Of a stretch of 64,000 nt of DNA, positions 162 through 16,423 are shown piece after piece. Each line of letters opens with the position of its first letter. Position 1 is the stretch's first letter. The DNA comes from Marivirga sp. (lineage in GTDB: Bacteria; Bacteroidota; Bacteroidia; Cytophagales; Cyclobacteriaceae): positions 5,613 to 69,612 of the forward strand of contig NZ_DASSWQ010000014.1 in NCBI RefSeq assembly GCF_035704835.1. The letters run 5' to 3'. The notes below the pieces were generated by a model that worked only from the letters and a program-made list of their open reading frames with translations, was not told where the DNA came from and did no database searches. The translations under genes and the position numbers were made by a program.

Positions 162-524
162 CTAATAAAAAAGTAAAGAATCCGATAACAATTTTGAAAA
201 ATTATCTATTTCATTTCTTTTTGCTCCTAATAGAAAAACCCTTTTGTTTTCTGTACTAGAGATCTCAAAAACTGAAGGTGCAATAGAAGTCATGTCAAAC
301 GTTGCCCTAACAACATTTTTTTTAATAAATAATTTAACAAAAAACAGCAAAAAAATACCATCAATTAATATCCTGTCTATAGAACTTATATTAAACTTAT
401 TTTTTAATATTTGATAAGAAACAGCATTTATATAAATGACAGTTTTATCATTTTGAAATATTTCATTAATTGTATTTACTGATGTTAAGCTTTTATTTTT
501 TATTGTAGATATATAATTATTCAT
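162..524 (-). pseudogene. WecB/TagA/CpsF-family glycosyltransferase, truncated (N-terminal ~120 aa only)
   Basis: IDGI, RATFDMTSIAP and RVFLLGAK match the WecB/TagA N-half. Stop follows at once. I found no GYxxGYF-type continuation in any frame of the remaining 161 nt. Confidence 0.65.
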
Positions 525-1617
525 TTTTTAATAGTCCTATTGTTAACATATATGAATAAAAAGTTACTCCATGCTGTCTGGCTAAATACACTTCAATTAT
601 GAATTCAATTGCAAATATAAGCAGAATAATAAAGTAAAACTTTTTATGATGCTTTATCGCAAAGTTTAAAGAGATTGCTAATAAAATTAAGAATAGAAGC
701 AAACCGAATATCCCATGTGTTAATATTATTTCTAAATATTGATTGTGCGTATTGTAATTTAAGTAATATTCAAGCCATGATTTATCTCTATATTCATTTA
801 GCTTAGTAAGACCATCACCAGTGCCCACCCCAAAATAGATATTATCTTTAATTGCTAGTAAACTATGTTCCCAGTTTCTCTTTCTTATATAATCAGAATC
901 ATGTATAAGTTTTAAAAATCTATTTTTAGTATCTTCATGATAATTAATCAGAATGAATGTTGATATAAAAATTGATGAAGCTAGAATAATAAATTTCATC
1001 AAATTTAATTCTCTGTATATTAAAAGCATTGATACTAATAAAAATATTAATATTGGCGCCTTGGCGGGGGTACTTAAAATAAAAATTAGTAATAAAAAAT
1101 GGATACTAATTTTTTGTTTGATTTTACTTTGAATCATATAGTTGATAATCAAAGCCCCGCAATAATACATTCCCAGATAGCTTCTGGGTATATTTGTAAT
1201 ATCAGTATCAAAAATTACATTCGACATAAAATTCAATAGCCCCAGCAGTAAAATTACACCTATTAATAGGTTTAAAAATTTAATTAAAAAGTTGGGTCTT
1301 TGAGAATTAACGACAATTAAAATCAATGGAACAAACAAAAGAGGTAACCTTTTTACCATAATATCTGCGATTTGGTCAATGTTTTCGGAATAAAATGAAC
1401 CGTAAAAATAAATGAAGAAAACACCTGCTGTTGGTGCTAAGATCTCTAAACTTTTTATAGTAATAACTTTTTTCTTGTAGCTCCAAGCGTAAATTATGGA
1501 TAAGGCCGAGCAAGCAATAAGTGAGATTGAATTTATAATAGGTAAGAATATCAGTCCGATAATTGATAAATAAACAATAAATTGAATTATATCATGTAAT
1601 AATCTTTCAATTTTCAT
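517..1617 (-). CDS. O-antigen ligase/polymerase-like membrane protein (WaaL/Wzy_C family)
   Basis: Many hydrophobic segments; periplasmic loop R..NW....FGVGTGD; YNTHNQYLEIILTHGIFG signature. Confidence 0.8.
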   Translation of the reverse strand: MKIERLLHDIIQFIVYLSIIGLIFLPIINSISLIACSALSIIYAWSYKKKVITIKSLEILAPTAGVFFIYFYGSFYSENIDQIADIMVKRLPLLFVPLILIVVNSQRPNFLIKFLNLLIGVILLLGLLNFMSNVIFDTDITNIPRSYLGMYYCGALIINYMIQSKIKQKISIHFLLLIFILSTPAKAPILIFLLVSMLLIYRELNLMKFIILASSIFISTFILINYHEDTKNRFLKLIHDSDYIRKRNWEHSLLAIKDNIYFGVGTGDGLTKLNEYRDKSWLEYYLNYNTHNQYLEIILTHGIFGLLLFLILLAISLNFAIKHHKKFYFIILLIFAIEFIIEVYLARQHGVTFYSYMLTIGLLKNE

Positions 1618-2719
1618 TTAACTTAATTTTAAAGAAATAAATTGCTAATAAGATAAAAATAAGTTGATATAACATGTTATGATAAAAACTTACTAAATAA
1701 ATTAATCCAATCATGAAAGTAGCTTTATTCTTTGAAAATATTATTAACAGGAATGTTAAAAACATTAAAGTTGGAATAATCCCAAAGTCAAATAAAAATC
1801 TAATAAAATCATTGTGCGTTTGTAGATCAGACTTAAAATTAGCTTTAATCATATTTCTAGAGGCTTCATTTCCTGCCCCCAATAATTTTTCATTAGTAGT
1901 TAATTCTGAAAATTTCTCTAGCGTTTTATTAAATAATGCATATCTTAATCCAAAAGATGCATCTCTCCCTGATTCATATCTTACCTCAACCAAACTTGGG
2001 TAGTTTTTAATTATACTATTGTAAACAGGATATGTGAGGTTTAGAAGTGTCATGTAAATTAACAGAACAACTAATCTAATTAATCTATTTTTTTTTGCAA
2101 AAAATAAAAAGAATGGTAAAAACAAGTAAAATGCTATGTTTAGACGTGTAACTGTTGGTAATATCAGCACTAAACCTATTGTATATAAAATTACTCGATA
2201 TAGTTTTTTCTTTATAAGTAGTATATTAATTGTAACAATTAATATAATGAACATTGAAAACGTGGTCGAACTTCCTGTAAAACCAGAAAATCTGCCTTCA
2301 AGAGCAAATGAAGTTGAAAAAAAAGAATATATTATTGCTAACAGAATGTATAAAACAAATACAATTAAACAGTATTTGGAAATTTTCTTTATCTGCCCGT
2401 CAAACTTTAATAAAGTACATGAACTGACTACAAAAAAATATAGTATTGGCATTGAATTCGATGCGCTCGTATAATTGATAATTGAAAATAGTAACAATAA
2501 AATACTCAACATTATTATAGAGACTTCAGATGTTGAGTATCTTTTCCTTATTACTTGAGTTGGAATAACTATAAAACTGAAAATTGATATCAAAGAGAAA
2601 TAGAAAACATTAAATTTAAATCCAATACCAAAAGGTAAAAGCAATCCTAAGATAATCGGGAATACGAGTACAGAAATAGGAAAGATCAAATTCGATTGAA
2701 ACTTAAGATTAATTTTCAT
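1607..2719 (-). CDS. wzy: O-antigen polymerase Wzy-like membrane protein
   Basis: Polytopic; GRFSGFTGSST loop, LLGAG and THNDFIRFLFDFG motifs; follows wzx. Confidence 0.7.
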   Translation of the reverse strand: MKINLKFQSNLIFPISVLVFPIILGLLLPFGIGFKFNVFYFSLISIFSFIVIPTQVIRKRYSTSEVSIIMLSILLLLFSIINYTSASNSMPILYFFVVSSCTLLKFDGQIKKISKYCLIVFVLYILLAIIYSFFSTSFALEGRFSGFTGSSTTFSMFIILIVTINILLIKKKLYRVILYTIGLVLILPTVTRLNIAFYLFLPFFLFFAKKNRLIRLVVLLIYMTLLNLTYPVYNSIIKNYPSLVEVRYESGRDASFGLRYALFNKTLEKFSELTTNEKLLGAGNEASRNMIKANFKSDLQTHNDFIRFLFDFGIIPTLMFLTFLLIIFSKNKATFMIGLIYLVSFYHNMLYQLIFILLAIYFFKIKLNEN

Positions 2720-3968
2720 TAATATCTTTTTTAATTCTTTTATGATGTATGTGTAAGTACGTTTTAATTAAAAATAGAGCCATGAATCCAGCTGATGTAC
2801 TTATTGCTGCTCCTATAACACCATATTTGGGCACTAAAATGAAATTTAGTGTTAGATTAATTACCAAGGATAAAATCGAACTATATAAGAGTAGCTTTTC
2901 TTTTCCTCTAATATACATCATATGATGAGGGTAATATGATAGCATAAAAAAGAAAGTACCGATTAGTAAAACATTTAAAACATTAATATTATTTAATAAT
3001 TCTTGCTTTCCTATTAGTTCTAGTAGAAATGGAGAGAAAAAATATAGCAAGACACATAATACGGTTGAAAGAAAAAGGATTTCACGGAGTAATTTTTCAC
3101 TAAGTTTTTTGAAGTTTGCCTCTTCGTTTAATTTATTTGCACGTATTAGTTTAGGATAAATTACAATTATCGTGACTGTGTGAATTGTTACAAAAACCAA
3201 GTTTGAAAGACTACTGAAGAAAGTAAAAATACCTACATTCTCTTTTGTTGTGTAAAAATCTAAAAAATATCTAGAAGAGAATTCTATTACTTTGAAAATC
3301 AAAGTTGAAGCGAAGAAGATAATTGAAATTTTTAATCCGCTTATTATATTATCAAAGACCTTTTTACTTAGACTTAAGGTAATCAGGTGGTTTTTCAAAA
3401 AATAAATCAGAATTAATATGAACGATATTGTTTCAAAGTAAAGCCAATAATTTATTATCACGGTGAGCGATATTGAAAATTCGAAAATCTTCAATTCTGT
3501 TAGTAATAATATAATTAAGCACCATAATCCCATTCTAACAAATTGAAGAATGTTAGCGAAAAGTGGTTTAGAAAATGCTATTAATAAACGATATCCTTCT
3601 AAACTTAGATGTTCTAAAATTAATATTAGGTAAAATATTAGAATCAAATTTGTTGGAATAATCTCTTTTAACAGGAAATATGAGGCCGGGATAAATATTA
3701 AATGTATAATTATGTGTAGTAAAAACTGTTCTCCAAGCAATCTCCTTTGTAAGGATTTTTTCTCTGAAACTACCTCCCTTATATTATATTGATAATAATC
3801 TAACCCTATAAATATAGCCGAAATAGTGACAGTTGTATAAAAAATTGAGTAAACCCCGTAATCTTCAAGGGATAAAGCTTTAAGAATGAGTAAATTAAAA
3901 ATGAACCTTATACCAATGGTTAAGCTTCTTGTAGTTAATATAGAGAGTTTATAAAAAAAGCCTTTCAA
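2709..3968 (-). CDS. wzx: Wzx polysaccharide flippase (MOP superfamily)
   Basis: ~12 TM; LEDYGVYSIF, ENVGIFT and LVPKYGVIGAAIST motifs; TTG start. Confidence 0.88.
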   Translation of the reverse strand: MKGFFYKLSILTTRSLTIGIRFIFNLLILKALSLEDYGVYSIFYTTVTISAIFIGLDYYQYNIREVVSEKKSLQRRLLGEQFLLHIIIHLIFIPASYFLLKEIIPTNLILIFYLILILEHLSLEGYRLLIAFSKPLFANILQFVRMGLWCLIILLLTELKIFEFSISLTVIINYWLYFETISFILILIYFLKNHLITLSLSKKVFDNIISGLKISIIFFASTLIFKVIEFSSRYFLDFYTTKENVGIFTFFSSLSNLVFVTIHTVTIIVIYPKLIRANKLNEEANFKKLSEKLLREILFLSTVLCVLLYFFSPFLLELIGKQELLNNINVLNVLLIGTFFFMLSYYPHHMMYIRGKEKLLLYSSILSLVINLTLNFILVPKYGVIGAAISTSAGFMALFLIKTYLHIHHKRIKKDINEN

Positions 3969-4261
3969 AAAATATTATTTAAATGCTGAAAAAGAGAAAT
4001 TCTTTAATTCAAAAAAAAGAAAATTAGAACTAATTTTCTCATTAATTATATTTTAAAATTAATTCATCAAATACTTATAGGTAGAATGCGCAAATAGATA
4101 TTTCTTTTTAAAATCTCCCTATTTAGTTTTGATGTAGTTCTATTTAATGAGATTCTATTATTTATTGACGATTTATTTATTATTAAAATTTGATACAGAT
4201 TTTAAAATAAAAAATCATACTAAATTTATTTGGAAGCAAATGTAATTAAAAGACTTATTAT

Positions 4262-5218
4262 TTAAACTATAGCTTCTGACCTGATGTTCATTTTTTTAAA
4301 GATAGTATTAATTTTTGCATATGGGTTAGTCAAATATATAACCTCAACTCCTGGGATATTCATCATGGTTAATAAAGTAGAACTACCAAAAGCAAATAAT
4401 TTGACATTACTTGTATTATACTTTAATAACTTTAAAATCCATTCTTCGGCAATCATATTAGTATCAATAATTTTTGACTGATTAATTTTATAATTATTCA
4501 TCAAGGTATCCTTGGGATGTGGTAGAAGATAATCAATCTTATATTTTTCTATGACATTGTTAAATAAACCAACAGAAATCTGCTTTGAAAGTCTTCCAAT
4601 ATCATAATAAGGAGTAGTCAATAAAATATTAATAGTATTATTGTTACTTGGTTTGTTTAGGGAATTACTTAGATCCAATAGTGAAACAAATGTACTGTTC
4701 GGAAAAATATTGAAATCAGGAGGAAATATTGTGAAATGGCAACTAATGAAGGTTTTAAGATTTTTATATAATAAATTTTTATTAAAAACTTTAAAAATAA
4801 AACTAGATATCCAATGTTCCTTAATTACGTCAAAATATCCTCCAACATTCAAATTTCCAATTCCGTCATCATAGGAATATATTTCACCATACTTCTTAGT
4901 ATAGTTAATAGTGGACAATAATAATACTCTGTTAAATGCGGTTTTTAATTGACCAATATAAATAGACTTAAACTTTTTCTTTCTAAGCGTGAGTAACAAT
5001 TTGAAAAGCTGAATTAAACCAGCAGAAGAATTTAAGTCAATTAATATTGAATTTTCAAAGAAGAGATTTATTTTATTGAAATAATTTAAATCTTTCTTAT
5101 TTATATTTTTAGTAAGATACACTAAAAAAACACCTGTTTTAGGCTTAGATTCCTTTAAAATTGATTTAATTATTAAGCAGTGTAAAGGAGTGTTTGCAAT
5201 AATAAGAGACTTATACAT
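4262..5218 (-). CDS. GT52 (Lst-like) nonulosonate transferase, probably pseudaminyltransferase
   Basis: SYDDGIGN, LPHPK, MIAEEWI and GSSTLL resemble the Lst/GT52 motifs FDDGxxN, PHP and IAEDY; next to pseI. Confidence 0.7.
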   Translation of the reverse strand: MYKSLIIANTPLHCLIIKSILKESKPKTGVFLVYLTKNINKKDLNYFNKINLFFENSILIDLNSSAGLIQLFKLLLTLRKKKFKSIYIGQLKTAFNRVLLLSTINYTKKYGEIYSYDDGIGNLNVGGYFDVIKEHWISSFIFKVFNKNLLYKNLKTFISCHFTIFPPDFNIFPNSTFVSLLDLSNSLNKPSNNNTINILLTTPYYDIGRLSKQISVGLFNNVIEKYKIDYLLPHPKDTLMNNYKINQSKIIDTNMIAEEWILKLLKYNTSNVKLFAFGSSTLLTMMNIPGVEVIYLTNPYAKINTIFKKMNIRSEAIV

Positions 5219-5401: not shown

Positions 5402-6409
5402 TTAATACAAATGTAATGGTGTGCCTTTTTTAGCATTTGAGTTAGCTATTTTTCCAATTATATCATTTAAATATTTCGGATGCATACCATGCCCAGGTCT
5501 AACACTTCTCACATGTTCTTCAGTTATAACTTCACCTTTTTTAATATCTTTTGCCACAAATAAAGATCGTCTCCTTAACTTACTCTTTTCACTAACCTCA
5601 TAACTAACTTTTCCCAAAGCTTCTTCTGCTTCCCTTACTCCTTGTACCATATCAGCAAATTCATTTGGCTCCATGGAGAAAGCAGAATCAGGACCACCCA
5701 AAGATCGGTCTAGAATAAAATGTTTTTCTACAACCGTTGCACCTAATGCAACTGAAACAATCGGAATGGTGCTTCCCATGGTATGATCTGAAACCCCTAC
5801 TTTAACATTAAAAGTCTCTTTTAGATTTGGAATAGTTAGCAAATTAGCCATATCAAAAGGTGCAGGATATTCGGAAGTACATTTTAATAGTGTAATATCA
5901 TTATTTCCAACTTTCCTACAGCTATGCACGGCCAGTTCAATATCTGCTAATTCTGCAACTCCTGTAGAAATTATAATTGGTTTCCCTTTGGAGGCCGTGT
6001 ATTCTATTAATGGAATATCAGTAATTTCTAAAGAAGCTATTTTATATCTAGGTACACCAACTTCGTTTTCAAGAAAGTCAACCCCGTGTAAATCGAAAGG
6101 GGAGCTAAAAAATTCCATGCCTAAGTCATTAGCTACCTTTTTAAGTTTTGGTTGCCATTCATAAGGCATTGCAGCCTCTTCAAACAGTTCATAAGGTCTT
6201 CTACCTTTCCATAATCCTTCCTTTCTAGGTCCGAAATACTCATTATCGACATCTAATGTAAGCGAATCAGGAGTGTAAGTTTGTACTTTAACAGCGTCTG
6301 CTCCTGAGGAAGCCATGGCCTCAATAGTTTTTACTGCTAAGTTATAATCATTATTATGATTAGCTGAAAGTTCAGCTATAATATAAACTTTATTATTCTT
6401 GTTATCCAT
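5402..6409 (-). CDS. pseI: Pseudaminic acid synthase
   Basis: IIAELSANHN, DAVKVQTYTPD, YKIASLEITD, GVSDHTMG, EKHFILDR; C-terminal SAF domain. Confidence 0.95.
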   Translation of the reverse strand: MDNKNNKVYIIAELSANHNNDYNLAVKTIEAMASSGADAVKVQTYTPDSLTLDVDNEYFGPRKEGLWKGRRPYELFEEAAMPYEWQPKLKKVANDLGMEFFSSPFDLHGVDFLENEVGVPRYKIASLEITDIPLIEYTASKGKPIIISTGVAELADIELAVHSCRKVGNNDITLLKCTSEYPAPFDMANLLTIPNLKETFNVKVGVSDHTMGSTIPIVSVALGATVVEKHFILDRSLGGPDSAFSMEPNEFADMVQGVREAEEALGKVSYEVSEKSKLRRRSLFVAKDIKKGEVITEEHVRSVRPGHGMHPKYLNDIIGKIANSNAKKGTPLHLY

Positions 6410-7400
6410 TTTCTAATATCTTTACTATTCGATCTACTCCTTTAAAATCAAGAGTACTTTTAGCTAACTTACTTAATTTTTTTCTTTTGTTCGGATTGTT
6501 GATTAGCTCATTTAACTCAGAATTCAATTTTGTCTCAGTTAAATCATCTATTAGCCCTAGGCTAATTAATGCGTCTGTGTTTTTTGCCAAATATTGAACG
6601 GCCTCTGCATTAGCCTTTTGATGTCCATAAGACAATATAGGCATTCCCAAAGCCATAAATTCATACGTGCTTACCCCAAAAGCTGAGATCAGCAAATCAT
6701 TTTTCAATATGTCTTGATGATTAAACTCATTGTATAAAAAATTTGTATATTTTGTATTATATTTTTTTAAATCTATTAGGTATTTATAGTCATTTCCATA
6801 AAAAAAATTAAAAGAAATATTTTTATAATCTTTTTTATCAAGCATTCCTTGAATGATCTTCAAGGTGTTCTTAGGGTCAGTTCCCCCTGCAATAATCCCT
6901 ATATTTTTAACTTCATTTATGCTTTCTTTTTTTTTAAGTGAAGTTACTTTATTATGAAAAGTAAAATATTCTAGACCTTGATAAACTCGAGTACTAGGCT
7001 TGAAATCACTAAAGAATGGCTTTTTTTGATTTATAGAAGGTAATATAAACAAATCTGCTAGATATTTCGAATTACTAATATTTTGATAAAAAGCTATTTT
7101 AGCATATTTCTTAATTTGACTAATAAATTCCTTATCAAATTCAATAATTCCATCTACATAAAATAAATCAATTAAATATTGCTTTATGATTAACAGTTCA
7201 TTGATTTGCTTAAGAGAATTTAATTCAAAAGTTTGAAAAGTAAAGCCCTTAGACTTTTCAAGATCCCAAAAATCTGAAGGGTTATGTGCAAAAAGAATTT
7301 TATGACCTTTTTCTGAAAGCTTATTTGCTAAGGCAACAGACCTATAATAATGTCCTAATCCAACCTCTCCACCCGCATCAACTCTAAATAAAATATTCAT
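6402..7400 (-). CDS. pseG: UDP-2,4-diacylamido-2,4,6-trideoxy-beta-L-altropyranose hydrolase
   Basis: FRVDAGGEVGLGHYYRS, GGTDPKN and GVSTYEFMALG motifs; context. Confidence 0.88.
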   Translation of the reverse strand: MNILFRVDAGGEVGLGHYYRSVALANKLSEKGHKILFAHNPSDFWDLEKSKGFTFQTFELNSLKQINELLIIKQYLIDLFYVDGIIEFDKEFISQIKKYAKIAFYQNISNSKYLADLFILPSINQKKPFFSDFKPSTRVYQGLEYFTFHNKVTSLKKKESINEVKNIGIIAGGTDPKNTLKIIQGMLDKKDYKNISFNFFYGNDYKYLIDLKKYNTKYTNFLYNEFNHQDILKNDLLISAFGVSTYEFMALGMPILSYGHQKANAEAVQYLAKNTDALISLGLIDDLTETKLNSELNELINNPNKRKKLSKLAKSTLDFKGVDRIVKILENG

Positions 7401-7402
7401 TA

Positions 7403-8065
7403 CTATTCTACACTTCCAATTTGCCTTGCGGGATTACCTACCATTTTTGCATAATCTGGTACATCTTTCAGGACTACTGACCCTATACCTGTTATGGACC
7501 ATTTACCTAGTTTTACAAATTCTAAAGTAGTTGCATTAGTCCCTAAATATGCTCCTTCTTCCAAATGTACATCTGCTCCAATACATGCATTATTAGCAAT
7601 ATAGCAGTAGTCATCTAGAACAGCCCCATGGCCTATTAATGACTGAGCATATATTTGGACATGATTTCCAATTTTAGTGTTAGGGCCAACAGAAACAAAT
7701 GGCTGGATGCAAGTGCCATTTCCTATTTGTGCAAATTTAGATACTACTGCAGTGGGATGAATTATTGTAGCAAATCTATTCTTTGGAATTTCTAAATCAG
7801 TTAATTTATTTAAAAATTTGAAGTTCATTTTTACCGAAATTAAGGTGTAAAAAAAATAAACATCAGGGTCTATTAAATACTTATTAATAGTCTTTTTATC
7901 AATTTTACCCAAAACAGGTGATCCATTAATGGGTTGAGTTTCCCTGTCATTTAAAAACCCTATTAAATCCCATTCTTGATTTACAGCATTTATATCTTCA
8001 ACAGTCGATTGAACGACAGTTCCATTACCATATCCGCCTATTATAATTAGTTTTTTAATTGCCAT
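7403..8065 (-). CDS. NeuD/PglD-family hexapeptide-repeat sugar N/O-acyltransferase
   Basis: N-terminal IIGGYGNG Rossmann motif, TIIHPTA, left-handed beta-helix repeats, C-terminal VGNPAR. Confidence 0.9.
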   Translation of the reverse strand: MAIKKLIIIGGYGNGTVVQSTVEDINAVNQEWDLIGFLNDRETQPINGSPVLGKIDKKTINKYLIDPDVYFFYTLISVKMNFKFLNKLTDLEIPKNRFATIIHPTAVVSKFAQIGNGTCIQPFVSVGPNTKIGNHVQIYAQSLIGHGAVLDDYCYIANNACIGADVHLEEGAYLGTNATTLEFVKLGKWSITGIGSVVLKDVPDYAKMVGNPARQIGSVE

Positions 8066-8066
8066 A

Positions 8067-8960
8067 TTAAGTAGTTTTATTGATCAAGTCCATTTTTTTC
8101 AGGATTTTTTGTGAGGATAAAATCATTGGAGGTCCCACGAATTTACCATTCACCAATGCGACTCCCTTCCCTTCTTTTTTTGCCTCATGCGCAAGCATTA
8201 AAATTTCATTGGCATTAGTAACCTCTTCTTCTGTTGGAGAAAAATATTGATGAACTAATGGTATTTCTTTAGGGTTTAGGACCATCATTCCCTCAAATCC
8301 TAAGATTTTAGCAATTTTAAGATTTTCCTCAAGTTCATCTAAATCATGAACATTAATGTGGACAGTATCAATAGGGACTACATTATTTGCTTTTGCAGCC
8401 ATAGCAATCATGGCCCTTGGTGTAAATAAACTTTGTCCAGCTGAGTCATGGATTCCACCTAAGTCTGTTATAAAATCTTCACAACCATAGGCAATCGCGA
8501 TAACTCTTGATGACGCTTTACATATTTCCTGTGCATTTAATACTGCTGCTGTGGTTTCAATTAAAGGTATAAGCTTAAAAGTTCCAATAGGAATCTCTTT
8601 TTCATATTCTATTGTTTCAAGTAATTTATCTATAAAATAAATATCTTCCCCTTTTTTAGCTTTAGGGTACATGAACCCATGAACCCCTTCAATAGTAAGT
8701 TGATATATGTCTTTTAGTAATTGCCCGCTTTCTCTATCATTTACTCTGGGGAATATCTTTTTATTTCCAAAACGTCCCGATTCGACCCAATCTTTTATGT
8801 TTGCCCTTGCAATAGGTTTATTTTCAGTAGGCTGAACGGAATCCTCTAAATCTAGTAATAATACATCAGCATTTTTGGTGCTAGCACTTTCCATCAACTT
8901 TAAATTGTGTGCCGGAACAAACATTAAACTTCTCATCAAGAAAAAATCATCGCTCTTCAT
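8067..8960 (-). CDS. CitE/HpcH-family acyl-CoA lyase/thioesterase
   Basis: RSLMFVP, LDLEDSV, RVN, YPK, PLIET, YGCEDF, LGFEG motifs. Confidence 0.92.
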   Translation of the reverse strand: MKSDDFFLMRSLMFVPAHNLKLMESASTKNADVLLLDLEDSVQPTENKPIARANIKDWVESGRFGNKKIFPRVNDRESGQLLKDIYQLTIEGVHGFMYPKAKKGEDIYFIDKLLETIEYEKEIPIGTFKLIPLIETTAAVLNAQEICKASSRVIAIAYGCEDFITDLGGIHDSAGQSLFTPRAMIAMAAKANNVVPIDTVHINVHDLDELEENLKIAKILGFEGMMVLNPKEIPLVHQYFSPTEEEVTNANEILMLAHEAKKEGKGVALVNGKFVGPPMILSSQKILKKMDLINKTT

Positions 8961-9421
8961 GCCTCTTCTTGCTTTTTAATTAATACATTTCTTTTAAAAG
9001 AGATTACACTCTTTCCCTCCTGATTAATTCCAAAAGTTTCAACATACACTATCCCGGCAGTGACATTGGATTTCGATTCTCTTTTATCTATAATTTTTGT
9101 TTTAGCATAAATTGTATCACCTATAAATACAGGGGCTAGATGGTTTATTTCTTCGTAATTTAAATTTGCTATAGCTTTCCCGCTTATGTCAGGGACCGTT
9201 ATGCCCACTACCAAGCTAAATACTAAAGTGCCTACAACCAATATTTTACCATATTTTTCATCTTTGCAGTAATCTGAATTTAGATGGACTGGGTGATGGT
9301 TCATTGTAATAAGGCTAAATAAATTGTTATCACTTTCAAAGATTGTTTTTGAAAGTTGGTGTTCTATTTCATCACCAATTTCAAAATCCTCATAGTAATT
9401 ACCCATTTTAGATGGTGTCAT
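8957..9421 (-). CDS. MaoC-family (hot-dog fold) acyl-CoA hydratase/dehydratase
   Basis: YYEDFEIGD, DNNLF...NHHPVH, PVFIGDTIYA motifs. Confidence 0.92.
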   Translation of the reverse strand: MTPSKMGNYYEDFEIGDEIEHQLSKTIFESDNNLFSLITMNHHPVHLNSDYCKDEKYGKILVVGTLVFSLVVGITVPDISGKAIANLNYEEINHLAPVFIGDTIYAKTKIIDKRESKSNVTAGIVYVETFGINQEGKSVISFKRNVLIKKQEEA

Positions 9422-10235
9422 ATCCTATTGATTTTAAAATATTATTTATTCGTTTAAGGTGGGGCTTCTCCAAAATTTGACCTTCTATTTTAGCTATTGT
9501 AAAATTGGATTTCCCTCCGATATCATCTATATATTGTTTTACTTTTTTTGCAAATAATATGTCTTTCGCAGTAAAATTAGAAAGATTCTTCAGAATATTT
9601 AATTGCCAAGGATGTATTATAAATTTAGACTCAAAGCCTTTGCTAATTCCATCACGACATTCATTCTGAAATTCATTTTCATCATTTATATTCATGGAAG
9701 CAATATCTATTGTCTCTTTTTCAAATGCTTTGGCAGTATTTAAAATTTTCATTCTGGCCCATAAAATATTTTCACTTGTATGTTCCATTCCCATAGCATC
9801 ACAATAATCGTGGCTACCCAAACCAATTGCTTCAACATACTCTGTTTGAGCAATTTCATCTAAAAAAATCAAGGCTTTTGGACTTTCGATCAAAACTATT
9901 AAACGTGGATCCTTTCTCAGGTTCTTAGAAATAAATAATGCGAATTCTTCAATTTCTTTTGAATTTTCGACTTTTGGCAAAACAAATCTGTGAAACCCCT
10001 CTTTTAGCAACGGTAATAAATATTTATAATTTCCACTAGTTGTTTTATAGGTATTTATCACCCTTGTATAGGTGTGATTCGGTAAATTATAGTTTAAGAT
10101 ATTATTTATAGCTTCATCAACATTTGTGTTGTGAATTGCATCTTCTAAATCCAATATAATCTCATCCGATTCTATATTGGTTGCCTGTTTGAGGAATTTC
10201 TCATTATTAGCTGGTATGAAAAAGTAACTTTTCAT
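9408..10235 (-). CDS. Second, more divergent CitE/HpcH-family lyase
   Basis: SYFFIPA, LDLEDAI, RVIN, LPKVE, LIESP, GSHDY, KFIIHPWQ. Confidence 0.85.
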   Translation of the reverse strand: MKSYFFIPANNEKFLKQATNIESDEIILDLEDAIHNTNVDEAINNILNYNLPNHTYTRVINTYKTTSGNYKYLLPLLKEGFHRFVLPKVENSKEIEEFALFISKNLRKDPRLIVLIESPKALIFLDEIAQTEYVEAIGLGSHDYCDAMGMEHTSENILWARMKILNTAKAFEKETIDIASMNINDENEFQNECRDGISKGFESKFIIHPWQLNILKNLSNFTAKDILFAKKVKQYIDDIGGKSNFTIAKIEGQILEKPHLKRINNILKSIGYDTI

Positions 10236-10900
10236 CCCTTTAACAAAAAGTTAAATTTCATTTCTGCACTTTTCCAATCATCTTCTGTATCTATGTCCTG
10301 TACGTATTCTGCAGGAATCACTAATGCTCCTCTCTTGTCCGACCGTAAGCCTTTTTCTGATTTCATCCAATAAAACTGCCCCGCATCGTGATAAGCATCT
10401 TCAAGATCCTGCGACCTGGATTTTAAAAATTCAGGATAAAACCAATCTACTTTCCCTTCATTTGATATTTTCATTGCTCTTTGTATAGGGTAAGAAAATT
10501 TTGCAACTGGTCGCACTGAGTCAAAATCTTGACCTTTTAACATATTAAGAGAACTGATTAAGTGCTTTCGTTGAATTAGAGGTGAGGTTGATAACATGCA
10601 ACAAGCATATTTGAATTTCCCTTTATAAAAGGATAATACTTCATCGACAACATCTGCCAAAGGTGCATAATCATCAGCATTTTCCTTCGATCGCATAAAA
10701 GGTACATTTGCCCCATACTTCTTGGCTACTTCAACGATTTCCTCATCATCAGTTGAAACCATAACCTCATCAAATAAACCCGATTGCAAAGCAGTTTCAA
10801 TGGAATAAGCTATAATAGGTTTACCTAAAAAGTCCTTAATATTTTTTCTAGGAATTCTTTTGCTTCCTCCTCTTGCCGGTATGATGCAAAGATTACTCAT
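10232..10900 (-). CDS. pseF: Pseudaminic acid cytidylyltransferase
   Basis: IIPARGGSKRIPRKNIKDF, RSQDLEDAYHDAGQFYW, VQDIDTEDDW. Confidence 0.95.
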   Translation of the reverse strand: MSNLCIIPARGGSKRIPRKNIKDFLGKPIIAYSIETALQSGLFDEVMVSTDDEEIVEVAKKYGANVPFMRSKENADDYAPLADVVDEVLSFYKGKFKYACCMLSTSPLIQRKHLISSLNMLKGQDFDSVRPVAKFSYPIQRAMKISNEGKVDWFYPEFLKSRSQDLEDAYHDAGQFYWMKSEKGLRSDKRGALVIPAEYVQDIDTEDDWKSAEMKFNFLLKG

Positions 10901-12081
10901 TTGTAGAATTCAATAATTTTGTTGATTACAAATTCTTGATCTTCAATAGGTAAAGTGGGGAACATCGGCAAACTTAAACAATTTTTATAATAAGTTTCTG
11001 CATTAGGCATATCGCCTTCCTTCCATCCAAAACTTCTATAATACGGCATCAAATGAGTAGGAATATAATGAATCTGAGCAAATATTTTATTTTCTCTCAA
11101 ATGGTTGTAAAGTCCCAATCTATCTTCCACTTCAATAACATATAAATGATAGGCATGACCTTTAACTACTCCAGATTGACCTATGATAAAATTTTCCCCT
11201 TCAAATGCTTCAAAATATTTCTTTGCAATTTCTTGGCGTCTCGCTAATCCTTCATCAGCTCTTTTTAACTGGCTTAGACCTAGAGCAGCCTGGAAATCAG
11301 TTAATCTGTAATTATATCCAAGGTCCTGCATTTCCATGTACCAGGCAGGATAAGAACTGTCACCGCCTGCAAATTCAATAGAGTTATCATAAGAACTTTC
11401 ATCCTTAGTGATACCGTGTGTCCTTAGTTTTAAAAGCTTATGGTATAATTCTACATCATTGGTAGAGACCATTCCACCTTCACCTGCAGCAATGTGTTTT
11501 ACTGGGTGAAAAGAAAAAATCGCTAAATCTGCAAATTTTCCATTTCCACAGTTTTGATTCTGTCCTTTGCTATCTGTAAAGTATCCTCCTGGAGAGTGAC
11601 AAGAATCCTCAATTATCCATAAGCCATATTCATCAGCTAATTCTCTAAAAGCTTCAAGATTTACGGCTCGTCCTGCAAAATCTACTGGTATAATGCCTTT
11701 GTAAGTTCCTTTGGGTGAAGCTTCTAGCAGTTTTCTTACTTTATTAATATCTAATAAATATGTTTCAGGATCAATATCTGCAAAAACCACTTCGCCACCA
11801 CAATACTTTACGCAATTGGCAGAAGCGGCAAAAGTAATTGGGGTGGTAATGACTTTATCACCTTCTTTTACATTTAAAGCAAGGCAATTTAAATGTAGGG
11901 CTGCTGTTCCATTAGCAACGGCAACTGCATATTTGGACCCTATATATTGGGCGAAAGCATCTTCAAATTCCTTGATTTTAGGACCTTGGGTAAGATAGTC
12001 CGATTGCAAGGTTTCCACTACTGCCTGAATATCAGTCTCTGTAATGTTTTGCTTTCCGTATGGGATTATTTGTTGGCTCAT
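10897..12081 (-). CDS. pseC: UDP-4-amino-4,6-dideoxy-N-acetyl-beta-L-altrosamine transaminase
   Basis: IPYGKQ, LTQGP, SFHPVKHI (PLP Lys), GEGG, LGYNYR. Confidence 0.95.
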   Translation of the reverse strand: MSQQIIPYGKQNITETDIQAVVETLQSDYLTQGPKIKEFEDAFAQYIGSKYAVAVANGTAALHLNCLALNVKEGDKVITTPITFAASANCVKYCGGEVVFADIDPETYLLDINKVRKLLEASPKGTYKGIIPVDFAGRAVNLEAFRELADEYGLWIIEDSCHSPGGYFTDSKGQNQNCGNGKFADLAIFSFHPVKHIAAGEGGMVSTNDVELYHKLLKLRTHGITKDESSYDNSIEFAGGDSSYPAWYMEMQDLGYNYRLTDFQAALGLSQLKRADEGLARRQEIAKKYFEAFEGENFIIGQSGVVKGHAYHLYVIEVEDRLGLYNHLRENKIFAQIHYIPTHLMPYYRSFGWKEGDMPNAETYYKNCLSLPMFPTLPIEDQEFVINKIIEFYK

Positions 12082-13088
12082 ACTTCAAAAGAAGGGTCTA
12101 CATGTTCTTTAATTAGGGTGCGTAAACTTTCAATAGTTTCCCACTCCGTGTTCTCTCCAGAATTATACTGAAATCCTTTTTCTACCTTTTTGGCGTTAAA
12201 TTGTTTGATATAATCTTCTAACTTCCATTTATGAGTTGCTGGTAAAATAGTATAATATTTTCCCAAATCATAAGTGTAATATGAATCGGATGAAGTGATC
12301 ATTTCTTCATGAACTTTCTCCCCGGGTCTGATTCCCACTTCAGGTTTTTCGCATTCCGGACCAATAGCTTCTGCAACATCAGTAATTTTATAAGATGGAA
12401 TCTTAGGAACGAATAATTCGCCTCCCCAGGCATATTCTAAGGCATGCATTACCATATCTACACCCCCTTGAAGTGAAATATTAAAACGCGTCATGGAAGG
12501 ATCTGTAATAGGTAAAACTCCATCTTTCTTTTTGTTTAAGAAAAATGGAATGACAGACCCATTGGATCCCATAACATTCCCATATCTTACAACTGAAAAC
12601 TTTATAGGGTTATTTCCTTTGATATTGTTTGCAGCTATAAATAGCTTATCAGAAGTTAATTTAGTAGCACCGTAAAGATTGATAGGTGCGCAAGCTTTAT
12701 CTGTTGAAAGTGCCACAACACGTTCTACTTTAGTAGCAAAACATGCATCAATCACATTCTGTGCTCCATTAACATTTGTTTTAATACACTCATCAGGGTT
12801 ATATTCTGCAATAGGAACATGCTTCATAGCAGCTGCATGGATTACATAATCAATACCTTGCATAGCCCTTCTTAATCTTTCTCCATCTCTTACATCACCA
12901 ATAAAAAACCTTATTTGAGGGTATTTATTATGAGGATATTCCTGAGCCATTTGAAACTGTTTTTGCTCATCTCTGGAAAAAATAACGACCCTTTTTACAT
13001 TTGGATAAATATCAAAGATATGTTTGGTTAATGCTTTTCCCAGTGAGCCTGTTCCGCCCGTTATTAAAACTGCTTTGTTATTCAACAT
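12078..13088 (-). CDS. pseB: UDP-GlcNAc 4,6-dehydratase (inverting)
   Basis: TGGTGSLG, SRDEQKQ, LSTDKA, NLYGATK, RYGNVMGSNGSV. Confidence 0.96.
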   Translation of the reverse strand: MLNNKAVLITGGTGSLGKALTKHIFDIYPNVKRVVIFSRDEQKQFQMAQEYPHNKYPQIRFFIGDVRDGERLRRAMQGIDYVIHAAAMKHVPIAEYNPDECIKTNVNGAQNVIDACFATKVERVVALSTDKACAPINLYGATKLTSDKLFIAANNIKGNNPIKFSVVRYGNVMGSNGSVIPFFLNKKKDGVLPITDPSMTRFNISLQGGVDMVMHALEYAWGGELFVPKIPSYKITDVAEAIGPECEKPEVGIRPGEKVHEEMITSSDSYYTYDLGKYYTILPATHKWKLEDYIKQFNAKKVEKGFQYNSGENTEWETIESLRTLIKEHVDPSFEV

Positions 13089-13110
13089 ATTTAATATATT
13101 ACAAAAATTT

Positions 13111-14361
13111 CTATAATCTTTTACTTACTAAACCTCTCTCAAAAAATCCTTTAATGTCATAAGTGACTCCATTTTCATTTAAATGGTTGGATAAGTTGAA
13201 ATCTTTAAATTCTTTATGTGAAACTGCTAAAACGATAGCATTATAATCTGAGCCTGGCTTTTCAATTAAGTCAACCCCGTACTCATGTTTCACTTCTTCT
13301 TTATCTGCTTGTGGGTCGTAGGTTTCTACTTCTATGCCGTAAGATTGCAGTTCTTTAATGACATCTATTACTTTGCTGTTTCGAATGTCAGGACAATTTT
13401 CTTTAAAAGTTATACCCAAAACCAAAGCTTTAGAACCTTTGATTACAGAGCCCTTTTGTGCCATTAGTTTTACCACTGAACTGGCTACGTGAGCACCCAT
13501 ATTGTCATTGATTCTCCTTCCTGACAAGATCACTTGCGGATGATAACCTAATGATTCTGCTTTGTGGGTTAAATAATAAGGATCAACTCCTATACAATGT
13601 CCACCTACTAGCCCTGGCTTAAACGGTAAGAAATTCCATTTAGTACCAGCTGCTTCTAATACATCGGCAGTATCAATTCCCATTTTATCAAAAATTAATG
13701 CCAGCTCATTTACGAAAGCAATATTTAAATCTCTTTGTGAGTTTTCAATTACTTTTGCGGCTTCCGCTACTTTGATAGTGGCTGCTTTATGTGTTCCTGC
13801 GGTAATAATTTCTTTATATAATTGATCTACCTCTTCAGCAATTTCTGGCGTACTTCCAGAGGTTACTTTTTTAATGGTAGGTAATCGGTGCTCTTTATCT
13901 CCCGGATTAATTCTTTCTGGTGAATAACCACAGAAAAAGTCTTGATTGAATTTCAAGCCACTTTCTTTTTCCAAAATAGGCACGCAATCATCTTCCGTAC
14001 AACCTGGGTAAACGGTAGATTCATAAATCACAATATCTCCTTTTTTCAAAGTCTTCCCAACTGTGGCAGAAGCCATTTTCAATGGAGTTAAATCAGGCTG
14101 CTTATATTCATTGATAGGAGTAGGAACTGTAACAATATAATAGTCCGCATCCTTTAGATCTTCTATATCAGCTGTATATTGAAGATGTTTAGCACCTTTC
14201 AATTCCTCACTATCAACTTCCAAGGTTCGATCGTAACCATCTTTAAGCTCTTGAACACGTTTTTTATTAATGTCAAAACCTAAGACTTCTCTGTATTTGC
14301 CGAATTCTGCAGCTAAGGGAAGTCCCACATAGCCTAAACCAATTACTGCGATTTTTTTCAT
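13111..14361 (-). CDS. UDP-N-acetylhexosamine 6-dehydrogenase (TviB/WbpO type)
   Basis: [36 protein letters not shown]. Start moved to ATG 14361 (MKKIAVIG) because a promoter box overlaps the track's 5' extension. Confidence 0.93.
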
Positions 14362-14381
14362 ACTATAATCCAAATGAAGTG

Positions 14382-14389
14382 CAAAATTA
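14382..14389 (-). promoter_or_regulatory. Bacteroidota -7 promoter box for the polysaccharide operon
   Basis: TAATTTTG on the minus strand (consensus TAnnTTTG), 20 nt upstream of ATG 14361; no clear -33 box. Confidence 0.6.
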
Positions 14390-14483
14390 GTCATTTTCCA
14401 TAACTAAGGAAGTGAATGTGCTTTTAATATCAAATGTATTGGAAAAGTGAAAGTTAGATTAGAAAAGTTAAAGGCTTTTTAAC

Positions 14484-14535
14484 CACTGAATTGCACTAAA
14501 GATTTCACTAAGTACACTGAGGATAGCCGTAGGCT
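14484..14535. repeat. Short CACT(A/G)A repeats followed by an AGCC-GTA-GGCT hairpin
   Basis: CACT units at 14484, 14494, 14506 and 14515; hairpin 14525-14535. Confidence 0.5.
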
Positions 14536-14572
14536 GTTAATTTAACCACAAAGTAACAAAAAAATAAAAGGA

Positions 14573-14790
14573 CAGCCGAAGGCTGAATATATTCACGCCA
14601 AGACGCAATGGCGCAAAGTTTACGCAACGAAAAAATGACTAGCTAAAGATAAAGGTGTTTAGCCATTTATCCTCCTAGAATATTTCTACCTTCATCCTAG
14701 TCAGATCCTAATTAAAAAAACCTTTGCGGTTCACTTCAATCCTTTGCGTCATAGCGGCTCTGCGAGAGTAGTCACACAGCCTTTGGCTGT
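14573..14790. repeat. MITE/REPIN-like unit with composite inverted ends (triloop hairpin plus nCGCAAAG octamers)
   Basis: Left: CAGCC-GAA-GGCTG then ACGCCAAG-ACGCAATG-GCGCAAAG. Right: CTTTGCG..CTTTGCGTCATAGCGGCTCTGCG then ACAGCC-TTT-GGCTGT. Confidence 0.6.
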
Positions 14791-14849
14791 TAATTTTTTG
14801 CTTCTTCTTTTCTTTAGCGAAAACTAAAAAATATTTCCGTATATACTTT

Positions 14850-14878
14850 TTTGAAATGGAATTTACTTCTTACCTTTG
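14850..14878 (+). promoter_or_regulatory. Bacteroidota promoter for tRNA-His
   Basis: TTTG (14850-14853), 17-nt spacer, TACCTTTG (14871-14878). Confidence 0.65.
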
Positions 14879-14889
14879 TGAGCCAAAAT

Positions 14890-14964
14890 GGTGGATGTAG
14901 CTCAGTTGGTTAGAGTATCGGTTTGTGGTACCGAGGGTCGTGGGTTCGAGCCCCATCTTCCACC
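14890..14964 (+). tRNA. tRNA-His (GTG); CCA not encoded
   Basis: Cloverleaf: G-1, acceptor GTGGATG/CTTCCAC (one mismatch), D arm GCTC/GAGT, anticodon stem TCGGT/ACCGA with loop TTGTGGT, T arm GTGGG-TTCGAGC-CCCAT, discriminator C. Confidence 0.96.
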
Positions 14965-14971
14965 CAAAAGA

Positions 14972-14999
14972 GCCTCTACAGTTAGTAGAGGCACTTTTT
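14972..14999 (+). terminator. Rho-independent terminator after tRNA-His
   Basis: GCCTCTAC-AGTTA-GTAGAGGC followed by ACTTTTT. Confidence 0.8.
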
Positions 15000-15228
15000 C
15001 TCAATTTGATATCATAATTGATATTTTTCTTGCCCAAGTTTTCTAAGAAAACAATCAACAAATTCGATTGAAATCGAATCAGTTGACAAAATTTATTTGT
15101 AATCATTTCATTTATTCTTGGCTTAGCGATTAGACGGATCGAACCGTCAAACCGTAAAGTTCAGTTATGCCGCCTACAAGGCTTTCCAAAATTATTAACT
15201 CTCAAATTTTTAATTGTTAATTAATAAG

Positions 15229-15429
15229 ACCTCTCTGTCCTTCGGACATCTCCCCTAAAACAAGGGAGCAACAGATTGTGCCAAACATGAGAAGTTTGCC
15301 TAAGAAAAACTCTTATACTTCAAAACAGAACAAACAAAAGATTTAAAATAAACAGTATAAATTGGCTAGAAGCAGTTCCCCACTCCCCTCCTTACAAAAA
15401 GGAGGGCTGCCCGAAGGGCGGGGTGGTTG
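15229..15429. repeat. 201-bp direct repeat, copy 1 (palindromic REP-like ends, AT-rich core)
   Basis: Aligns without gaps to 15936-16136 (offset 707 nt) with 7 mismatches counted by eye. Confidence 0.95.
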
Positions 15430-15516
15430 TCAAAACCTGTGCCCGAGAGCGGGGCGGTTGCATAAATTCAAAATTAAATCAGATTCTTTTTTAAAATATC
15501 AGAGCTTTTTATTTAA

Positions 15517-15912
15517 TTGAAATCGCAACAATACATAGTTAGTCCCTTGAAAAACTATCAAATCCATAATAGACCTGAACTAAAAGAATACAGAAAAAGA
15601 CTGAGAAACAATGGTACACCTGCAGAAGCCTTTTTGTGGAATTACTTAAAAGCCAAACAATTAAAAGGCAGGAAATTCAGAAGGCAATTTAGTGTAGGAA
15701 ACTATATTTTAGATTTTTATTGCCCTGCTGAAAAACTTTGTATTGAATTGGACGGTGCCGACCATTTTACTTCAGCAGGTTATCAAAATGACGAGGAAAG
15801 AACAAATTATTTAAATCATCTCGGAATCAAAGTTATTAGATTTGAAAATAAAACAGTTTTTGATGCAACTGAAAGTGTGTTGGAGACTATTGTGAGTAAT
15901 TTTAAGGAGTGA
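15517..15912 (+). CDS. DUF559 / Vsr-like endonuclease domain protein
   Basis: LRNNGTPAEAFLW, KFRRQ, ILDFYC, IELDGADH, D..RT.YL..LG.KVIRFEN. No ATG; TTG at 15517 or 15547. Confidence 0.92.
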   Translation: MKSQQYIVSPLKNYQIHNRPELKEYRKRLRNNGTPAEAFLWNYLKAKQLKGRKFRRQFSVGNYILDFYCPAEKLCIELDGADHFTSAGYQNDEERTNYLNHLGIKVIRFENKTVFDATESVLETIVSNFKE

Positions 15913-15935
15913 AAAAGCTCTTAAACCGCTGAATA

Positions 15936-16136
15936 ACCCCTCAGTCCTTCGGACAGCTCCCCTAAAACAGGGGAGCAACAGATTGTGCTAAACATGAGAA
16001 GTTTGCCTAAGAAAAACTCTTATACTTCAAAGCAGAACAAACATAAGATTTAAAATAAACAGTATAAATTGGCTAGAAGCAGTTCCCCACTCCCCTCCTT
16101 ACAAAAAGGAGGGCTGCCCGAAGGGCGGGGTGGTTG
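15936..16136. repeat. 201-bp direct repeat, copy 2
   Basis: See copy 1. Followed by a partial extra end, AGTCCGAAGGGCAGGGTGGTTG (~16143-16164). Confidence 0.95.
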
Positions 16137-16353: not shown

Positions 16354-16359
16354 TGGCAC

Positions 16360-16398: not shown

Positions 16399-16423
16399 AG
16401 AAAGAAATGATAATCTAAAATTA

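Follow-up and report, generated by a model that had tools for sequence, protein, structure and literature searches.

How does a pseudaminic acid operon manage without PseH, and what acyl group would then be placed on the sugar? This question is raised by a 64,000-nucleotide stretch of Marivirga sp. DNA (contig NZ_DASSWQ010000014.1), here called the window. On its minus strand, at 5402-14394, ten consecutive genes in the order gna-pseB-pseC-pseF-CitE'-MaoC-CitE-LbH-pseG-pseI form a single operon, as judged from coordinates and sequence. Pseudaminic acids (Pse) are surface and flagellar sugars, and their N-acyl groups determine serotype, recognition by phages and lectins, and evasion of immunity. 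The PseH step is the acylation of UDP-4-amino-4,6-dideoxy-β-L-AltNAc, and the amine acylated in this step becomes N7 of Pse. On balance, our analysis favours a non-acetyl N7-acyl pseudaminic acid, for which CitE and MaoC would supply the acyl-coenzyme A (acyl-CoA) and a PglD-class left-handed β-helix (LbH) enzyme would act as the transferase. We infer these functions from synteny, fold and residue patterns only. The four genes of the cassette are as follows.

9408..10235, minus strand: CitE', a P-class CitE-like protein of 275 aa (PF03328, 99.9 bits; RipC, 96.8 bits, under the cut-off of 375)
8957..9421, minus strand: MaoC-like single hot-dog hydratase of 154 aa (PF19315, 69.9 bits; PF01575, 63 bits)
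8067..8960, minus strand: CitE, an E-class CitE-like protein of 297 aa (PF03328, 138 bits; TIGR01588, 196 bits, under the cut-off of 443)
7403..8065, minus strand: LbH N-acyltransferase of the PerB/PglB/VioB/PglD class, 220 aa (PF17836 and PF00132, Hexapep; TIGR03570, 152.5 bits)

The original prediction for this DNA described four coupled genes lying between pseF and pseG and no GNAT-type pseH in the locus, and both descriptions are confirmed. By their open reading frame coordinates, pseF and CitE' overlap by 4 nt, CitE' and MaoC by 14 nt, and MaoC and CitE by 4 nt, while gaps of 1 nt and 2 nt separate CitE from LbH and LbH from pseG, and pseG overlaps pseI by 8 nt. No terminator-like hairpin was found on the minus strand between pseF and pseI, and a sigma-70 promoter scan was uninformative (80 hits against 80.3 expected). 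There is no GNAT open reading frame within the operon. In the whole source genome, which is 99.97% complete, nothing scores higher than 32.6 bits with the PseH model TIGR03585, whose cut-off is 93.1. This absence was first taken as proof of a missing PseH and was later down-weighted, because the model is a weak test in Bacteroidota: among 401 species genomes of this phylum (the phylum sample), it scores above cut-off in one, though 50 have PseI. From these counts, most Bacteroidota PseH enzymes evidently evade the model, and the PseH step in Bacteroidota is largely done by unrecognised enzymes. A second query, a PseH-like GNAT encoded beside pseC in a different Bacteroidota pse locus (L051; it shares 57% identity with a copy in L110), also gave no match in the source genome, so that the genome search for a remote pseH that had been proposed with the original prediction came back empty with both queries. 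Given that the genome holds no recognisable GNAT PseH and the operon holds an acyltransferase of the right class, the best reading is that the LbH is the functional substitute for PseH.

The features of this LbH bear directly on that reading. The protein combines an N-terminal PglD_N domain (PF17836) with hexapeptide repeats (PF00132) and aligns over its full length with VioB (E 6e-19). His146 falls on the VioB His that we take to be the catalytic residue of the class, and a Gly-His pair is invariant across 62 homologues. For an AlphaFold model (pLDDT 95.4), the closest structural matches are PerB, the acetyltransferase domain of PglB, Pcryo_0637, WeeI, VioB and PglD, with TM-scores up to 0.87 (0.82-0.87 for PerB and the PglB domain). 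All of these structural neighbours N-acetylate an amino group of a nucleotide sugar, mostly a C4 amine. The model thus identifies a probable PerB/PglB/VioB/PglD-type N-acyltransferase, and because its fold and conserved His match those of nucleotide-sugar N-acetyltransferases, it is predicted to be competent to acylate UDP-4-amino-4,6-dideoxy-β-L-AltNAc. This lends support to the earlier placement of the cassette at the PseH step. We consider it very unlikely that the enzyme is a NeuD-like O-acyltransferase that puts the cassette's acyl group on a Pse hydroxyl while an unrecognised, unlinked acetyltransferase serves N4. TIGR03570 does span NeuD as well as the PglB and VioB types, and the insensitivity of the PseH hidden Markov model (HMM) leaves room for a remote, divergent PseH. 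Against this stand the best full-length fold matches, which are all to N-acetyltransferases of nucleotide sugars and mostly of C4 amines, the coupling of the cassette elsewhere to DegT aminotransferases, and the failure of two queries to find a PseH-like GNAT in the genome.

If the LbH takes the PseH step, the next question is whether it uses acetyl-CoA or the product of its neighbours. We built a maximum likelihood tree of 75 LbHs from cassette loci, VioB included. It splits into two groups (SH-aLRT 99), one a clade of 70 that holds every cassette-adjacent LbH; VioB and second LbHs of the same loci, which do not adjoin the cassette, fall outside it. Within the cassette-adjacent clade, the 12 pse-type LbHs form a clade of their own (SH-aLRT 99). 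Of 8 LbH relatives found independently in the phylum sample, 5 have CitE/MaoC alongside, already when flanks of 1.5 kb are considered. Co-inheritance of the cassette-adjacent LbHs with CitE and MaoC is our main argument, and it suggests indirectly that the acyl donor of the LbH is made by the cassette and is not acetyl-CoA.

It is unlikely, in our view, that the LbH is no more than a non-GNAT counterpart of PseH with the same function, yielding Pse5Ac7Ac, with CitE', MaoC and CitE serving an O-linked substituent, a non-sugar decoration or thioester housekeeping. Every solved structural neighbour of the LbH does use acetyl-CoA, the LbH-type enzymes LegH and PglD carry out the analogous acetylation in the legionaminic acid and bacillosamine pathways, and CitE lacks a canonical catalytic Asp, as described below. 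However, the MaoC-CitE pair is accompanied by an LbH and an aminotransferase in various phyla and sugar pathways, the cassette LbHs form a clade that excludes VioB and the second LbHs of their own loci, and the pair has no further conserved partner that could modify an acceptor.

The distribution of CitE and MaoC provides the evidence for this linkage. CitE, at 297 aa, has thousands of homologues at 66-93% identity. When one genome per species was scanned, 303 species genomes had a close relative at 66-87% identity. These genomes come from at least 12 phylum-level lineages, including Bacteroidota, Ignavibacteria/Melioribacteraceae, Cloacimonadota, Neomarinimicrobiota, Delongbacteria and Calditrichota, as well as Treponemataceae, Omnitrophota, Aminicenantes, Desulfobacterales, a gammaproteobacterial metagenome-assembled genome (MAG) and a Woesearchaeote MAG; a CitE query from a gammaproteobacterium drew top matches that were all MAGs. 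Our survey comprised 82 non-redundant CitE loci. MaoC lies immediately upstream of CitE in 75 of these, an LbH is present in 61 and a DegT-type aminotransferase in 50, a tight and wide linkage of MaoC-CitE to aminotransferase and LbH pairs. Other neighbours are RmlA, RmlB and FdtA/WxcM-like isomerases, which make dTDP-3-amino-3,6-dideoxyhexoses. Because such genes are neighbours in other loci, MaoC-CitE(-LbH) appears to be a portable module that serves several amino-sugar pathways.

The complete pse-embedded form was found in about 13 loci, which answers the earlier call to look for the cassette in other pse clusters. Examples are Salegentibacter salarius, three Algoriphagus, Catalinimonas, Parafilimonas terrae and a Roseivirgaceae MAG. 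A nine-gene order is common to Algoriphagus, Catalinimonas, Salegentibacter, Parafilimonas and MAGs, and this recurrence argues that the arrangement is not due to chance. Cultured bacteria with this block include Salegentibacter salarius DSM 23401, Algoriphagus marincola DSM 16067, Parafilimonas terrae DSM 28286 and Catalinimonas niigatensis. Within the phylum sample, the conserved CitE occurs in 7 genomes and lies inside a pse operon in the source genome alone, so that 1 of the 50 PseI-positive genomes has the pse-embedded cassette. In sixteen further pse loci of Bacteroidota the cassette is absent and other tailoring sets are found instead, with genes for aldo-keto reductase, class-III aminotransferase, a second cytidylyltransferase, PIG-L deacetylase, formyltransferase and GNATs. 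The pse-linked block is therefore a rare arrangement of a widespread module, and its newness concerns the published literature only.

It is scarcely credible, in light of this synteny, that a catabolic Ich-Ccl pair of the itaconate or leucine type landed in the locus by chance. The MaoC-then-CitE order and the best NCBIfam matches (RipB and RipC) do resemble ripB-ripC, but the pair lacks a CoA transferase, its scores fall well short of the equivalog cut-offs, the synteny with glycan genes is kept in 75 of the 82 loci and across at least 12 lineages, and translational coupling ties the genes into the pse operon. Chance insertion is effectively refuted by the synteny.

The closest named relative, Salegentibacter salarius DSM 23401 (L008), has the same pse cassette together with three additional genes inside the operon.

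L008 6540-7058: small hexapeptide transferase
L008 9928-10605: formyltransferase
L008 10577-11299: PIG-L family de-N-acetylase

Because a formyltransferase and a PIG-L de-N-acetylase are in the operon, its gene content suggests that in S. salarius N5 may also be de-acetylated and then re-acylated (formylated).

What acyl-CoA might the module make? MaoC finds its best matches in the Protein Data Bank (PDB) among β-methylmalyl-CoA (mesaconyl-CoA) dehydratases (8hgn and 4e3e; 122 and 117 bits). It reaches 146.9 bits against the RipB/Ich equivalog, under the cut-off of 340, and matches the PhaJ-type (R)-hydratases 1iq6 and 5cpg weakly, at about 31 bits. In 75 of 75 sequences the hydratase-2 motif reads TMNxHPxH, in which the His is kept and Asn stands for the classical Asp, and the same Asn...His pattern is present in the C-terminal, motif-bearing domain of 8hgn. 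Taken together, the proximity to 8hgn, 4e3e and RipB/Ich, the shared Asn...His pattern and the weak PhaJ match point to a carboxylated enoyl-CoA as the probable substrate more than to crotonyl-CoA. This bears on a further candidate, (R)-3-hydroxybutanoyl, which would give Pse5Ac7RHb as in Acinetobacter K93 and Shigella boydii 7, with MaoC acting in PhaJ fashion on crotonyl-CoA and the CitE-like proteins as accessories. This acyl group is the commonest non-acetyl N-acyl on Pse (Pse5Ac7RHb is cited in PMC11494974), and the MaoC family includes (R)-specific enoyl-CoA hydratases, as the weak matches to 1iq6 and 5cpg recall. We nevertheless judge it distinctly unlikely, given the 122 bits of MaoC to a β-methylmalyl-CoA dehydratase against 31 to PhaJ and the Asn in place of the hydratase-2 Asp; moreover, it leaves the most conserved protein, CitE, with no role, and no crotonyl-CoA source is encoded.

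CitE is the most conserved protein of the cassette. The catalytic set of the CitE-like superfamily comprises a D-x-E-D motif, an Arg, a Mg-binding Glu and Asp, and a lid Asp (PMC3832036). The lid residue (Asp299 of the Rhodobacter sphaeroides malyl-CoA lyase) is contributed by the adjacent subunit and serves to protonate the enolate or to deprotonate it, and it is conserved throughout the superfamily except in the malyl-CoA thioesterase clade, where it is Glu (PMC3832036). We aligned CitE with 1sgj, 5ugr and CLYBL and counted alignment columns over 82 sequences. Both CitE and CitE' keep the D-x-E-D motif, the Arg and the Mg-binding Glu and Asp, in CitE in all 82 sequences. At the lid position, by contrast, CitE has Gly276-Pro-Pro in 82 of 82 sequences, with no acid. 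His18, His171, Asp172 and His201 are invariant in the subfamily, and the usual IHPxQ motif has become L(N/H)PKE. The AlphaFold2 model (pLDDT 85.6) is a TIM barrel with a lid hairpin, in keeping with the barrel and swapped C-terminal lid of the superfamily, and has a TM-score of 0.86 to the malyl-CoA lyase 5ugr; in this model, the loop with His171 and Asp172 is predicted to be disordered. Scores are under the equivalog cut-offs for TIGR01588 (196 against 443) and RipC (118 against 375). CitE thus belongs to the superfamily by fold but lacks one defining catalytic feature; either another residue acts as the base, or the chemistry differs. Because the lid Asp is missing, a simple malyl- or citramalyl-CoA lyase running in reverse is not a given.

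A separate CitE-like family, with open frames of about 410 aa that exceed CitE by about 120 aa, is 32-34% identical to CitE and occurs in 16 of the 401 Bacteroidota genomes (example at G121:C1:1292618-1293445).

CitE' differs from CitE in the same region. Its lid position is Glu, the state of the thioesterase clade, IHPxQ is kept and GSHD replaces GxED; its RipC score, about 97, is likewise under the cut-off of 375. CitE' is present in 11 of 13 pse-type loci and in 8 of 69 other loci (Fisher p = 3e-7, with loci that are not phylogenetically independent). It may be an accessory mainly of the pse version, acting either in editing, as a thioesterase-like enzyme, or as a second lyase. The earlier suggestion of a lyase plus a thioesterase thus gains support from the lid Glu that CitE' shares with the malyl-CoA thioesterase clade. 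We also considered whether, in a hetero-oligomer, CitE' could complete the active site of CitE in trans through its lid Glu. As a general solution this was rejected, because most loci have CitE without CitE' (about 60 of the 69 non-pse loci).

In loci of Cloacimonadota and a small number of further lineages, the gene immediately upstream of CitE encodes a third CitE-like paralogue, which has 24-28% identity to CitE and replaces MaoC in some loci. This paralogue has canonical IHPxQ and GLED motifs and Thr-Pro-Pro at the lid Asp position. Its positions are as follows.

L061 8165-9004: third CitE-like paralogue
L076 4289-5098: third CitE-like paralogue
L080 8195-9004: third CitE-like paralogue
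L020 966-1766: third CitE-like paralogue
L054 4142-4951: third CitE-like paralogue

The pocket of CitE gives some indication of substrate size. The invariant residues Ala157, Gly159 and Val200 align with Met133, Gly135 and Val181 of the hydrophobic site that accommodates a 3-methyl group. In malyl-CoA lyases, a Pro and a Trp crowd the methyl of pyruvate (PMC3832036); the alignment shows Val and Met at these positions of CitE. Because the crowding residues are replaced and the 3-methyl pocket residues are invariant, the pocket, as read from the alignment, should admit an oxo acid larger than glyoxylate. The acyl group is probably a (di)carboxylic one of C4-C6, either β-hydroxylated or unsaturated, for example malyl, citramalyl, mesaconyl or itaconyl, and the choice of any one of these would be tentative at best. 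Among such groups, 4-malyl is the sole one that is chemically documented on sugars, and it is the same acyl as in malyl-CoA. N-(4-malyl) amino sugars are found in Pseudoalteromonas rubra, Vibrio vulnificus YJ016 and Shewanella algae BrY (PMC3210612). The source genome encodes isocitrate lyase, so glyoxylate should be available in this organism. A pure glyoxylate/malyl route is feasible in the source genome; as a universal route it is doubtful, given the anaerobic carriers and the isocitrate lyase-negative control that are described next.

Several points weigh against a carboxylated, CitE-derived acyl group. Many carriers of the module are anaerobes with relatives that lack isocitrate lyase, and the Bacteroides thetaiotaomicron control is negative for this enzyme, which argues against glyoxylate as a universal substrate. 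The acyl donor of the LbH could still be acetyl-CoA. If the donor were a β-hydroxyacyl-CoA, MaoC would be unnecessary, and we know of no chemical precedent for an enoyl-CoA as a donor to sugars. In sialic-acid loci, NeuD-type LbHs are O-acetyltransferases, so O-acylation is conceivable. A CitE without the lid Asp, a residue treated as catalytic (PMC3832036), may carry out aldol condensation or cleavage in a non-standard way, and the condensation of acetyl-CoA with pyruvate, that is, citramalyl-CoA synthesis, is thermodynamically poor (PMC3832036). A bolder interpretation, which we hold to be possible though doubtful, is that the Gly-Pro-Pro-lid CitE represents a new reaction class of the superfamily that forms a thioester enolate without the lid Asp and, together with MaoC, feeds the synthesis of a previously unknown family of anionic N-acyl amino sugars. 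Going by the 303 species genomes in the scanned collection, these sugars would then occur in hundreds of species or more, from no fewer than 12 lineages. Speculatively, the enolate could arise by decarboxylation of malonyl-CoA, which would make aldol addition to pyruvate, glyoxylate or oxaloacetate irreversible, or the base could be relocated, for example to His18 or to His171/Asp172. The decarboxylative variant would answer both the poor thermodynamics of citramalyl-CoA synthesis and the missing lid base. If this interpretation were true, the products would include a Pse5Ac7(carboxy-acyl) nonulosonate with a second carboxylate.

How would these activities be joined to the remaining pse enzymes? 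The other genes of the operon are as follows.

13111..14394, minus strand: gna, a TviB-like UDP-N-acetyl-hexosamine 6-dehydrogenase and first gene of the operon (NF011729, 604.8 bits, cut-off 592)
12078..13088, minus strand: pseB, inverting UDP-GlcNAc 4,6-dehydratase (TIGR03589, 513.6 bits, cut-off 407.75)
10897..12081, minus strand: pseC, C4 aminotransferase, which makes the amine to be acylated (TIGR03588, 463.6 bits, cut-off 423.5)
10232..10900, minus strand: pseF, CMP-pseudaminic acid synthetase (TIGR03584, 291.2 bits, cut-off 205.7)
6402..7400, minus strand: divergent pseG-like UDP-sugar hydrolase (TIGR03590, 95 bits, under the cut-off of 153.55)
5402..6409, minus strand: pseI, pseudaminic acid synthase (TIGR03586, 462.4 bits, cut-off 340.25)

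In an HMM search, PseB, PseC, PseF and PseI all score above their NCBIfam equivalog cut-offs, which bears out the annotation of these four genes in the original prediction; the fifth, PseG, is seen as a PseG-like protein at 95 bits. It is the most divergent pse enzyme of the operon, with C. jejuni PseG (3hbm, E 4.6e-4) as its sole PDB match, yet it keeps the N-terminal GxGH motif and a conserved operon position. Such divergence is expected if the substrate of PseG carries a different N4-acyl group. As predicted from the equivalog matches, PseB and PseC would yield UDP-4-amino-4,6-dideoxy-β-L-AltNAc. The CitE-like enzyme or enzymes, together with MaoC, would convert acetyl-CoA (possibly malonyl-CoA) and a 2-oxo or 3-oxo acid to a β-hydroxy or α,β-unsaturated carboxy-acyl-CoA, for which malyl, citramalyl/mesaconyl/itaconyl and 3-hydroxy-3-methylglutaryl (HMG)/methylglutaconyl are candidates. 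The PglD/PerB-class LbH would then move the acyl group to the C4 amine, the later N7 of the nonulosonate, and the divergent PseG, followed by PseI and PseF, would lead to CMP-Pse5Ac7Acyl, the sugar of which a GT52 enzyme would add to a polysaccharide made by Wzx and Wzy. The original prediction held that the cassette builds a dicarboxylic acyl-CoA that the LbH installs. Its placement of the cassette at the PseH step and the LbH class stand, whereas the identity of the acyl group, a donor other than acetyl-CoA and the direction of the CitE and MaoC reactions are left as predictions.

The genes expected to act on the finished sugar nucleotide lie downstream of the pse operon, where the wzx/wzy region (517..3968) has profile matches to PF01943 and PF04932.

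4262..5218, minus strand: GT52-family (sialyltransferase-family) glycosyltransferase (PF07922, 76.2 bits)
2709-3968, minus strand: Wzx flippase
1607-2719 and 517-1617, minus strand: two adjacent Wzy-like polymerase genes

The GT52 enzyme is a candidate transferase for the modified nonulosonate, and its presence together with a Wzx flippase and two Wzy-like genes identifies a Wzx/Wzy-dependent polysaccharide locus. Within window positions 1-5000, the G+C content falls to 24-27% in the GT52, wzx and wzy genes, compared with 30-37% in the pse genes and the flanks, and this low G+C is typical of a horizontally exchanged, serotype-specific region. Upstream of gna, at 14400-16800, a DUF559 nuclease gene (15517-15912) is the sole gene of at least 80 aa, and small GC-rich hairpins include a bidirectional terminator-like hairpin at 14972-14992. 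No wza, wzb or wzc was identified among the scanned neighbours. A Wzi-like protein is encoded at 16812-18524, and a giant minus-strand open reading frame of 5359 aa spans 41597-57676.

If a dedicated CitE/MaoC route is true, it would be a new acyl-donor pathway in nucleotide-sugar biochemistry, and it could account for the making of the N-malyl-type sugars known from nuclear magnetic resonance. In addition, the Asp-less CitE would define a subfamily that breaks the catalytic-residue rule of its superfamily. The decoration may be common, since the cassette is present in gut Bacteroidales (Bacteroides and Alistipes) and in many uncultured phyla. Importantly, several cultured type strains carry an identical pse-linked block, so the proposal is directly testable.

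The overall logic has a parallel in the anthrose operon antABCD of Bacillus anthracis and B. cereus, in which a hydratase leads to a special acyl-CoA, an aminotransferase makes a C4 amine and the LbH AntD installs the acyl group. The pse cassette follows the same logic, but AntA is a crotonase-fold hydratase acting on methylcrotonyl-CoA, whereas here a MaoC hot-dog protein is combined with CitE-like TIM barrels, and the acceptor is UDP-altrosamine en route to a nonulosonate. The gene pair itself resembles known catabolic systems. RipB and RipC convert itaconyl-CoA via citramalyl-CoA to acetyl-CoA and pyruvate, and the Mycobacterium tuberculosis pair of a MaoC-type hydratase and Rv2498c, which resembles MaoC-CitE, handles methylglutaconyl-CoA and (R)-HMG-CoA. 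Among NCBIfam models, MaoC matches RipB/Ich best and CitE' matches RipC/Ccl best. Both folds and the MaoC-then-CitE order are shared with RipB/Ich-RipC/Ccl and with the β-hydroxyacyl-CoA lyase Rv2498c, and CitE retains the hydrophobic 3-methyl-group pocket (Ala157/Gly159/Val200 against Met133/Gly135/Val181) (PMC6689899). Unlike the RipB-RipC pair, the cassette has no CoA transferase, scores far under the cut-offs, lies in a glycan-biosynthetic context and has a CitE without the lid Asp.

Two unequal CitE-like paralogues working on one acyl-CoA are known from the lyase Mcl1 and the (3S)-malyl-CoA thioesterase Mcl2 of R. sphaeroides, and the lid Glu of CitE' fits this comparison (PMC3832036). 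It differs in that the partner "lyase" here has no lid acid, most cassettes elsewhere have no CitE', and the product presumably goes to a sugar instead of being hydrolysed to malate. The N-(4-malyl) sugars of marine bacteria, in which the acyl group of malyl-CoA is amide-linked to a diamino sugar, are a precedent for a CitE-derived N-acyl, although they are GlcNAc3NA or QuiNAc4N derivatives and not Pse (PMC3210612). The canonical PseB-PseC-PseH-PseG-PseI-PseF pathway of Helicobacter pylori and Campylobacter jejuni (psaA-F of Acinetobacter, PMC11494974) is matched here by equivalogs of PseB, PseC, PseF and PseI and by a PseG-like protein, and the order gna-pseB-pseC-pseF...pseG...pseI, followed by a sialyltransferase-like glycosyltransferase, is like that of gna-psaA-F in Acinetobacter (PMC11494974). 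It departs from the canonical pathway in having a PglD-class LbH and three genes of acyl-CoA metabolism in place of the GNAT PseH, and in its strongly divergent PseG. Our literature search found no paper on a MaoC-CitE-LbH cassette, an Asp-less CitE subfamily or an insertion of this kind in a pse operon. Compared with the known systems, the logic of a special acyl-CoA combined with an aminotransferase and an LbH is established, and what is new is the set of enzymes used, the Asp-less CitE subfamily and its insertion in a pse operon.

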